Shown here in pieces: positions 36,730 to 37,930 of a stretch of DNA of 39,560 nucleotides. The notes under the pieces are model-generated. The model was not told the DNA's origin and made no database searches. It was given only the letters and a program-made list of their open reading frames with translations. Source of the stretch: a virus (taxonomy: Duplodnaviria > Heunggongvirae > Uroviricota > Caudoviricetes). The stretch is taken from IMG/VR virus record IMGVR_UViG_2548876940_000011; one strand, written 5' to 3'. The translations under genes and the position numbers were made by a program. How positions within the stretch are numbered: the first letter of the stretch is position 1; every line of letters begins with the position of its first letter.

Positions 36730-36744
36730 GCAGGATAAAAAAAT

Positions 36745-36777
36745 GCCGCCGGTAAGGGAAAACAAGAAACCGGCGGC
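36745..36777 (-). terminator. Hairpin with T-tract on the minus strand only
   Basis: GCCGCCGGT ... ACCGGCGGC (9-bp stem, 15-nt loop); plus strand has A-runs on both sides, so the U-tract follows only on the minus strand. Confidence 0.35.
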
Positions 36778-36873
36778 AAAAAGATCGTTATATCCAAAGC
36801 AAAAAATGCAGTGCACCTTTTTACCTAACAGATATTACCGGTGTCAACACCATGTCAATAATTGGGAGGGATA

Positions 36874-37056
36874 ATGACATTTTTACAGCTTATTTTATTG
36901 TATTTCTGCACGGCAGTATGTGCGTTATATCTGGTGAGTGGTGGTTATAAGGCCATCAGAAATTATGTTCGCCGCAAAATTGAGGACGCAGCAGCTGAAA
37001 AACTCAGTAAAACAGCGCAGGTAACTCCGCTCCCAAAAGACCCGACCCAGCCCTGA
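36874..37056 (+). CDS. Small hydrophobic (membrane) protein
   Basis: ORF 36862..37056; ATG at 36874 after GGGAGGG gives MTFLQLILLYFCTAVCALYLVSGGY (one TM helix) then a charged tail. Confidence 0.45.
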   Translation: MTFLQLILLYFCTAVCALYLVSGGYKAIRNYVRRKIEDAAAEKLSKTAQVTPLPKDPTQP

Positions 37057-37091
37057 TTGCAGGGCTTTATTCCCGCATAAGGAGGATATAC

Positions 37092-37346
37092 ATGCCAGAA
37101 ATTAAAGGCACCGTCACTGAAGACCTGGTAAAACAGGCACTGTATTCCGGTGAAGTAAATAAGTTGCTGAAAGCGCAGGTCCGCAAGGATTTTGAGGCAC
37201 AAATCGACACTTACGTTGATGAAGTGCTGGCAAAACTTATTGGGCCAGCAGTTGCGGCCAGTGATGCTGATAATGAGCCGAAAACCGACGCGCAGCCAGA
37301 GCAACCAGACCCGGCTCAGCCCGGAACTGACAGTACCATGATGTAA
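37092..37346 (+). CDS. Hypothetical small acidic protein
   Basis: 84 aa; strong RBS AAGGAGG 6 nt upstream. Confidence 0.5.
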   Translation: MPEIKGTVTEDLVKQALYSGEVNKLLKAQVRKDFEAQIDTYVDEVLAKLIGPAVAASDADNEPKTDAQPEQPDPAQPGTDSTMM

Positions 37347-37513
37347 CAATACAAACCGGTGGTGTCCTCTGCCGGTTTGACACTAATGAAAACATCTTTG
37401 CCGCTATCCAGCCATATGTAATCGCTGGATAGTATTTCGTATTCAGAAATATAGCTGCTTATGGAGCAGTCAATCCTGCTTCCCCATCCGGGCAGGCAAA
37501 TGAACCGGTATCA

Positions 37514-37807
37514 TTAGTCCGATTCACGCTTTTGTAGAATCGTTCCCAGAATGCTATACAGCTCATTAGCCTGTTGCTCCATCATTGAGACGGAGGCTAT
37601 ACGGTGCAAAGTGATTTCAGGAGGTGGCACACCTCCATCTTCTTGCTGTGGAGGAAAAACATAAGATTTAATAAAAAAGTTGAAGCATATGAACTCTCCC
37701 GCACTCGAACTGTATTTGCAGGCATCTGAATAATCGGAAAAATAATCATTATAGATTTCCGCATTTTCAATCATTTTTCGATTTCTCGTCGTTACATGAT
37801 TGTCCAT
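37514..37807 (-). CDS. Hypothetical protein (AT-rich, opposite strand)
   Basis: 97 aa minus-strand ORF in an AT-rich segment between the fibre-distal cargo and com. Confidence 0.45.
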   Translation of the reverse strand: MDNHVTTRNRKMIENAEIYNDYFSDYSDACKYSSSAGEFICFNFFIKSYVFPPQQEDGGVPPPEITLHRIASVSMMEQQANELYSILGTILQKRESD

Positions 37808-37930
37808 AGCAGCCTCTTACGCTGGCAATTAACCAATTGACTTCTATAAATTAGTTGATTTGTTTGCTTTGCGGTATTCAAATGTACAATCATTCAGCAC
37901 TTATGCGTTACAGCACCGTTTAAAATTAGT

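Follow-up and report, generated by a model that had tools for sequence, protein, structure and literature searches.

The DNA considered here, hereafter the window, is the whole 39,560-nucleotide (nt) stretch of IMG/VR virus record IMGVR_UViG_2548876940_000011 (Duplodnaviria; Heunggongvirae; Uroviricota; Caudoviricetes), which holds a Mu-like Escherichia coli prophage. Between a predicted NanS-p-type esterase gene and com, its right arm carries three small open reading frames (ORF1, ORF2 and ORF3; Table 1) in a 1.08-kb interval. A first-pass annotation, made from the sequence alone, had described these as a short protein with a single transmembrane segment, an acidic 84-aa protein with a strong ribosome-binding site (RBS) and an AT-rich 97-aa ORF on the minus strand, and both the positions and the descriptions proved correct. 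It had also called them cargo, a term that suits all three since none is a Mu core gene, and all are conserved across related prophages and so are not chance ORFs. Its further view, that their mixed orientation and composition reflect independent acquisitions, holds for ORF3, which occupies a discrete cassette, but not for ORF1 and ORF2, which keep an invariant arrangement with the esterase whether the prophage is lambdoid or Mu-like. We consider it probable that the interval holds, side by side, the 3' half of a mobile NanS-p module and a separate, replaceable cassette carrying ORF3.

Table 1. Features of the prophage right arm, with positions in the window.
Feature	Position	Strand	Basis
gin-type serine invertase, 3' remnant (last ~20 codons)	34522..34588	+	translation matches Gin C-terminus
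Predicted NanS-p-type carbohydrate esterase (SASA + DUF6645), first gene of module with ORF1 and ORF2	34675..36729	+	Pfam, PHROG
Candidate small RNA gene in 144-bp esterase-ORF1 spacer	36737..36812	-	folding, covariation, position
Promoter-like motif of candidate small RNA: TTGACA (36847-36842), 18-nt spacer, TAAAAA (36823-36818)	36818..36847	-	
ORF1, DUF1378 protein, 60 aa	36874..37056	+	PF07125, phrog_494
ORF2, DUF826 protein, 84 aa	37092..37346	+	PF05696, phrog_311
Hairpin CAAACCGG-N12-CCGGTTTG, right edge of conserved module	37352..37379		kept in all cassette types; similarity stops just beyond
Replaceable AT-rich 574-bp cassette with ORF3 and its own flanks, GC 0.395	37381..37954		similarity breakpoints
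ORF3, predicted orphan acidic protein, 97 aa	37514..37807	-	open frame in alleles, RBS, dN/dS
mom control region, conserved	37955..38063	+	95% identical across relatives of every cassette type
com	38064-38264	+	Zn_ribbon_Com 7.5e-13; RefSeq annotation
mom	38218-38955	+	Mom 1.6e-77; RefSeq annotation

The esterase and its linked gene pair

The 684-aa product of the esterase gene matches the Pfam families SASA (1.5e-13) and DUF6645 (1.1e-67) as well as phrog_143 (1.5e-295), and from these domains it is predicted to be of the NanS-p type, with 9-O-acetyl sialic acid esterase activity. ORF1 belongs to PF07125 (DUF1378; 9.4e-32, 109.4 bits against a cut-off of 25), its residues 1-58 aligning to profile positions 1-58 of 59, and also matches phrog_494 (1.3e-32). 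ORF2 belongs to PF05696 (DUF826; 6.4e-16, 58.7 bits against a cut-off of 25) and matches phrog_311 (4.9e-28) over residues 1-83 of 85. Both PHROG families are function-unassigned in that database.

ORF1 has one N-terminal hydrophobic segment (residues 3-21, mean Kyte-Doolittle value 2.27), predicted to be a transmembrane helix, followed by a basic tail (isoelectric point [pI] 9.3, net charge +3.5), and its start codon is preceded at 3 nt by GGGAGGG. In a 21-member alignment of DUF1378 the invariant columns were F3, L9, Y10, F11, S22, G23, G24, Y25, and R29, giving a family layout of near-invariant hydrophobic helix, SGGY motif, basic amphipathic stretch, and variable, proline-rich tail, which ORF1 fits. 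ORF2 is acidic (pI 4.24, net charge -8.5), has AGGAGG 6 nt 5' of its ATG, and found no match among Protein Data Bank (PDB) sequences. Its AlphaFold2 model consists of a helix over residues 20-50, with block-mean predicted local distance difference test (pLDDT) values of 89-94 across residues 21-40, and a predicted disordered tail, acidic and rich in proline, whose residues 55-84 mostly fall below 50. The guanine-plus-cytosine (GC) content of the two ORFs is 0.45-0.50. Among Mu-like relatives the ratio of nonsynonymous to synonymous substitution rates (dN/dS) is 0.11-0.24 for ORF1 and 0.085-0.26 for ORF2, with 0.04-0.09 for mom as a comparison value, and by this measure both ORFs are under purifying selection.

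Linkage was examined in 80 viral-contig loci collected with the DUF1378 profile, 78 of which extend far enough upstream to be tested. A NanS-p-type esterase was present upstream in all 78, ending 146-171 nt before the DUF1378 gene except for two at ~0.7-0.9 kb, and a DUF826-type ORF starts 20-41 nt after the DUF1378 stop codon in 77/80. Twenty-seven of the 80 loci were Mu-like, that is, they had com or mom downstream, or gin together with the Mu-type esterase N-terminus upstream; the other 53 were lambdoid, 52 of them with a holin gene downstream. Taken together, the purifying selection and the esterase linkage show that ORF1 and ORF2 are real genes that arrived together with the esterase, and the opposite net charges of their products, along with their pairing in 77 of the 80 loci, suggest that the two proteins may form a complex.

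In an annotated lambdoid prophage (L002) the order is Q, tRNAs, esterase, DUF1378, DUF826, holin, and lysozyme, and in VT2-Sakai it is stx2AB, esterase, an unannotated DUF1378 gene, orf43, and holin S; we take the C-terminal part of orf43 for the DUF826 gene. ORFs of the DUF826 and DUF1378 families are noted in the nanS-p-to-S interval by a survey of Stx2a phages published in 2023 (PMC10462455); in the literature we found nothing on nanS-p together with Mu-like phages, or on the 933W ORFs L0106/L0107.

The DNA of positions 35008-37002 is 91.7% identical to that of the lambdoid prophage L002 in one stretch running from inside the esterase gene into ORF1. In O157:H7 strain F8798 (L107 1619-7634), a Mu-like prophage lies inside a lambdoid nanS-p gene, so that two esterase copies stand in direct orientation, and locus L086 reads gin, Mu-type esterase, lambdoid-type DUF1378, holin, lysozyme. 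The latter looks like the expected product of recombination between two esterase copies, mis-assembly being another possible source. Together, these three observations point to continuing exchange between the phage types by homologous recombination. The first ~110 residues of the esterase (34675-35010) are unlike lambdoid NanS-p and are 59-100% conserved among Mu-like copies; DUF1737 was not matched anywhere in the 684 residues, and residues 1-112 gave no Pfam match of any kind. As the gene adjoins the tail-fibre genes, a virion-associated role for the esterase is conceivable.

A candidate small RNA in the esterase-ORF1 spacer

On the minus strand, positions 36735-36817 gave a weak match to the Rfam model of the small RNA (sRNA) Esr41 (RF02676; 22.2 bits against a threshold of 102), and the same model scored 30.9 bits against 102 at the equivalent position in VT2-Sakai. 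These matches prompted a comparison of 34 distinct esterase-DUF1378 spacers, obtained from 87 lambdoid and Mu-like loci. All 34 have a variable body of ~55-95 nt followed by a GC-rich stem-loop and a U-run that abuts the esterase stop codon, and in 33 of them the minus strand carries TTGAC[ATG] or TTTACT, 17-18 nt, and then TAAAAA, the 34th having TTAAAA instead. In the window, the putative terminator stem pairs 36744-36753 with 36769-36778 and is followed by a U7 run (36743-36737), and the spacer RNA folds at -23.5 kcal/mol (z = -5.0). Compensatory changes were seen in 7 of the 10 pairs of the terminator helix, and the observed values were reached by none of 500 shuffles. A covariance model trained on 13 alleles recovered untrained alleles at the expected place with E-values of 3e-4 to 5e-2. 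These results suggest that the spacer probably encodes an sRNA.

The candidate is not Esr41, given a score of 22 bits against 102 and the location of Esr41 in the SpLE1 island. Verified Hfq-dependent sRNAs of enteropathogenic E. coli (EPEC), PasA and PasC, occupy the same position and orientation (PMC8550237 Table S6). However, BLAST of PasA/PasC against the spacer found no match, and elsewhere in the window only chance-level matches of <=23 nt (E >= 0.1), and the spacer covariance model gave only E >= 1 at the PasA/PasC loci; neither search supports homology. We therefore regard the candidate as the positional analogue of these two sRNAs and do not assign it to their family.

ORF3, the slot beside mom and the surrounding arm

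ORF3 differs from its surroundings in composition (its GC content is 0.398, that of the prophage 0.535 and that of the esterase gene 0.549) and has AAGAGG 5 nt 5' of its ATG; in the RefSeq version it is 86 aa long and starts at 37774. It found no match in Pfam, PHROG, NCBIfam, or PADLOC, none in a tblastn search of phages and plasmids, and nothing better than E 0.57 among PDB sequences. A word-indexed search of 5.8 billion proteins returned only near-identical E. coli and Shigella sequences, and an exhaustive phmmer search of 1.84 billion representatives returned only its own cluster. The AlphaFold2 model, built on a seven-sequence alignment, had a pLDDT of 50 and was too poor for a fold search. 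As far as these searches can tell, ORF3 is a true orphan gene. Three alleles (DNA identity 100%, 96%, and 88%) have the frame open, an allele of 79% identity keeps it, and dN/dS is 0.36 with an excess of synonymous changes (crude binomial P = 0.006); differences at codon positions 1, 2, and 3 numbered 13, 8, and 17. We regard this as moderate evidence of coding.

Similarity to four related loci (L003, L007, L008, and L107) stops at ~37375-37380, just past the hairpin that follows ORF2, and resumes at 37955, and these junctions (~37380 and 37955) are common to four types of cassette. The first alternative to the ORF3 cassette holds a 154-aa zinc-ribbon gene (phrog_26524), the second a truncated copy of the 154-aa gene plus a 66-aa ORF on the plus strand, and the third a 175-aa protein with a zinc ribbon and a transmembrane segment; minus-strand genes are also found in alternative cassettes at this slot. 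Among 5426 complete E. coli genomes, the com-mom arm occurred in 233. The com-proximal end of the 154-aa gene was present in 216 genomes, and the truncated form of this gene with the 66-aa ORF in 15; the ORF3 cassette was present in 18 and the 175-aa cassette in 1. We considered whether ORF3 might be a fragment of the 154-aa gene, which fills the slot in most relatives, and rejected this, as the two share no similarity. PADLOC defence models gave no meaningful match for ORF1, ORF2, ORF3, or the proteins of the alternative cassettes, and two weak terminator-like hairpins were noted for the ORF3 cassette. In the E. coli protein P0078, the DUF826 N-terminus is fused to the frame upstream of mom, which indicates that the whole variable cassette was deleted in some prophage copy.

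Beyond the slot, the mom control region contains a perfect palindrome, AATCGATCG-N7-CGATCGATT (37996-38020), with two GATC sites, situated ~45 bp 5' of com. Relatives share this palindrome, which may correspond to the part of Mu Pmom that is under Dam/OxyR or C control. The mom frame stays open for ~195 nt 5' of its annotated start at 38218 (38023-38955) and spans all of com, and because of this overlap some gene callers give a 299-aa Mom and omit com.

At the other end of the arm, the remnant of gin reads IGLSILCRYVPA*PAPSQKVP in translation and matches the Gin C-terminus DIGLSTLYRYFPASPAPSPKVP. Compared with relative L004, a clean 870-bp deletion with its junction at 34522 has removed L004 positions 1631-2500, and with them gin and the right part of the invertible tail-fibre segment, including its right inverted repeat. 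Between the invertible segment and com, the window has no intact serine recombinase gene, only the ~20 C-terminal codons; relatives carry an intact 190-aa recombinase. Loci L003, L004, and L107, as well as 9 of 10 copies sampled, have a gin-type recombinase 5' of the esterase, indicating that the cargo sits between gin and the mom control region and that gin was not replaced. The first-pass placement of the ORFs where Mu carries gin is thus only partly right: most relatives keep gin 5' of the esterase, and this copy has lost it by deletion. The G-like invertible segment (33415-34588) is frozen in this copy, having lost both gin and the right inverted repeat. A ~165-bp inverted repeat is retained in relatives, and reversal of the assembly gene in relative L019 shows that the segment inverts when gin is present.

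The prophage as a whole runs from 197 to 39084 between the two copies of a 5-bp duplication, GGACG (192-196 and 39085-39089), and interrupts the tail-fibre gene of a lambdoid prophage. The flanks comprise 1-196 and 39085-39385, the lambdoid tail-fibre N-terminal domain (PF08400) lying on the minus strand at 39062-39385, and TTTGATACCG motifs repeated at both prophage ends resemble transposase binding sites. The prophage encodes a c-type repressor, MuA- and MuB-like proteins, baseplate J, gp48, and a tail fibre; a tail-fibre assembly gene oriented opposite to the tail fibre is followed by the esterase gene, ORF1 to ORF3, com, and mom. E. coli S1-CAM-01-A has an identical right arm at a different chromosomal site, and thousands of assemblies contain the exact ORF2 protein. 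Of ten copies of the ORF2-bearing prophage that were sampled, no two shared an insertion site, which is what a transposing phage should show. Among deposited phages, the only close relatives were regions labelled "inserted Mu-like phage" in two Stx-phage records.

Interpretation and comparison with known systems

According to the reading that we favour, a NanS-p module joined to a separate ORF3 cassette, the module comprises the esterase, a probable convergent sRNA gene in the 144-bp spacer, and the tightly linked DUF1378 and DUF826 genes. It is the block that in Shiga toxin (Stx) and other lambdoid prophages lies between stx (or the antiterminator gene Q) and holin; in the Mu-like lineage its place is between gin and the mom control region, and the two kinds of phage appear still to swap it by homologous recombination. 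Since the U-tract of the post-esterase hairpin is on the minus strand only, ORF1 and ORF2 are most likely co-transcribed with the esterase, and each has a strong RBS of its own. From its charge distribution, ORF1 is predicted to lie in the inner membrane with the N-terminus out and the C-terminus in, and its basic cytoplasmic helix could bind the acidic ORF2 through the latter's long helix, which is acidic too. As to function, our best guess is that the two are expressed late and act together at the envelope or on the timing of lysis, a tentative proposal that we hold to be possible and on balance less probable than its contrary; the alternative is a helper specific to the esterase.

The 574-bp cassette, in turn, is self-contained, bounded by the terminal hairpin of the module and by the mom control region, with ORF3 oriented away from com and mom, and the slot is a hot spot in which related prophages have at least four cassettes unrelated to one another. 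Going by its sequence and setting, ORF3 is probably an accessory ("moron") protein expressed from the prophage. A role of ORF3 in interference, whether defence or anti-defence, is a guess that we think unlikely to be right. We think it more unlikely still that the slot, which lies just 5' of the mom promoter and diverges from it (mom being itself an anti-restriction gene), is a dedicated exchange hot spot for small interference genes (ORF3 and the unrelated zinc-ribbon proteins, as undescribed defence or anti-defence factors) and, at the same time, that esterase, sRNA, DUF1378, and DUF826 constitute one unit whose membrane and acidic proteins control esterase release.

Several results weigh against the reading that we favour, in whole or in part. 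In the Mu-like context, a consensus scan found no plus-strand promoter for an esterase-ORF1-ORF2 unit. Nor did such a scan identify a promoter for ORF3; the sole promoter-like match near it is weak, would suit no start but that of the 86-aa version, and lacks conservation in L005. At 87%, ORF3 is no better conserved than its non-coding upstream flank (88%). The predicted structures of ORF2 and ORF3 offered no functional lead. Finally, DUF1378 genes occur with neither esterase nor DUF826 in Cedecea neteri (L104 4797-4961), after a tail-fibre gene, and in Lonsdalea britannica (L105 5001-5150), directly after Rz/Rz1 and overlapping the Rz stop codon; the esterase linkage is therefore not obligatory across the whole family.

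These solitary genes also bear on the idea that ORF1 and ORF2 serve the esterase specifically, say in membrane targeting or in NanS-p release, and are not factors for the envelope or lysis in general. Strict synteny of the pair with the esterase within Escherichia, even in Mu-like phages that have no adjacent holin, speaks for this, as does the purifying selection kept there; but DUF1378 manages without an esterase in both genera, in Lonsdalea following the spanin genes of the lysis cassette, and no known mechanism ties such proteins to SGNH esterases, so we judge a dedicated helper role unlikely. The view of the first-pass annotation is that three unrelated small genes were gained separately at a permissive site replacing gin. 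The absence of gin from this copy agrees with it, as do the differences in orientation and composition between ORF3 (minus strand, GC 0.40) and ORF1 and ORF2 (plus strand). Yet the synteny census already contradicts this view for ORF1 and ORF2, which in 77-78 of 80 loci from two phage types go together and accompany the esterase, the DNA identity with a lambdoid prophage continues unbroken from the esterase into ORF1, and gin lies upstream of the same cargo in most relatives. We consider separate gains of all three genes very improbable.

For the spacer, it might be argued that the hairpin is only a bidirectional or protective terminator of the esterase 3' end and that no sRNA is made: a DNA hairpin covaries whichever strand is read, the spacer has no sequence similarity to PasA or PasC, and the Esr41 score is far under its threshold. 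The U-tract, however, is present on the minus strand only, G-U pairs arise when the helix is read as minus strand, a promoter-like motif of fixed spacing persists in 33 of 34 otherwise very divergent spacers, and the EPEC sRNAs at the same position and orientation are verified (PMC8550237), so that a terminator and nothing more, while possible, is the less probable alternative to an sRNA gene. A comparable doubt attaches to ORF3, which might be no gene but a fortuitous frame in a non-coding AT-rich segment, either a regulatory or silencing region of com/mom or a decayed remnant. No homologue lies beyond its own cluster, the ORF is conserved no better than its flank, the third-position bias is weak, the structure model is of low confidence, gene callers, RefSeq among them, place the start differently, and by a rough estimate made with no simulation ~1 in 6 such ORFs would stay open after 38 random substitutions. 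Set against this are the frame kept open in three alleles, the dN/dS of 0.36 with its synonymous excess (P ~0.006), the good AAGAGG site, and the minus-strand genes of alternative cassettes in the same slot, one of them in phrog_26524; on this evidence we find a non-coding origin doubtful and retain ORF3 as a probable gene.

Read again in this light, the arm consists of an esterase, a likely sRNA, and a DUF1378/DUF826 pair moving as one block between lambdoid (including Stx) and Mu-like phages, and prophage rearrangements can result when esterase copies that they share recombine. DUF1378 and DUF826, which are common in pathogenic E. coli, thereby gain a sharper and testable context (paired, under selection, and opposite in charge), and a cassette-exchange slot has been located beside mom, with orphan genes that lend themselves to screens for interference phenotypes. 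The module is already known from Stx phages and is here merely sited in a Mu-like phage, ORF1 and ORF2 are members of known families, and overall the arrangement is ordinary, though tidy, phage mosaicism, unsurprising for phage biology.

Among known systems, the right end of Mu (G segment, gin, com, mom) has tail-fibre and assembly genes, com, and mom in the same order, with mom 72% identical in DNA. Where 94 bp separate gin and com in Mu, ~3.3-3.6 kb of cargo lie in the lineage studied here, and unlike Mu this copy is without gin and without the right inverted repeat of the invertible segment. The ORF3 cassette resembles morons (lambda bor and lom, HK97 gp15) in its deviant base composition, in that close relatives either have it or lack it with exact junctions, and in its orientation against the flanking operons. 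Morons have a promoter and terminator of their own; for the cassette, one weak, non-conserved promoter-like match and two weak terminator-like hairpins were noted. The candidate sRNA, like Esr41 and PasA/PasC (EcOnc51/52) of EPEC and enterohaemorrhagic E. coli (EHEC), lies 3' of a gene for a sialic acid esterase on the opposite strand, measures ~75-85 nt, and ends in a GC-rich terminator and U-tract beside the esterase stop codon, but it shares no detectable sequence homology with PasA/PasC. The closest likeness in gene content is to the nanS-p-to-S interval of Stx and lambdoid prophages (933W, VT2-Sakai), which has the same three families in the same order, orientation, and spacing, with SASA and C-terminal DUF6645 followed by DUF1378 and DUF826, and the same architecture of the esterase-DUF1378 spacer. 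The esterases differ over their N-terminal ~110 residues, where lambdoid NanS-p has DUF1737, and the modules differ in setting: the lambdoid one lies between Q or stx and holin, and the one described here between the tail-fibre genes (or gin) and com-mom.

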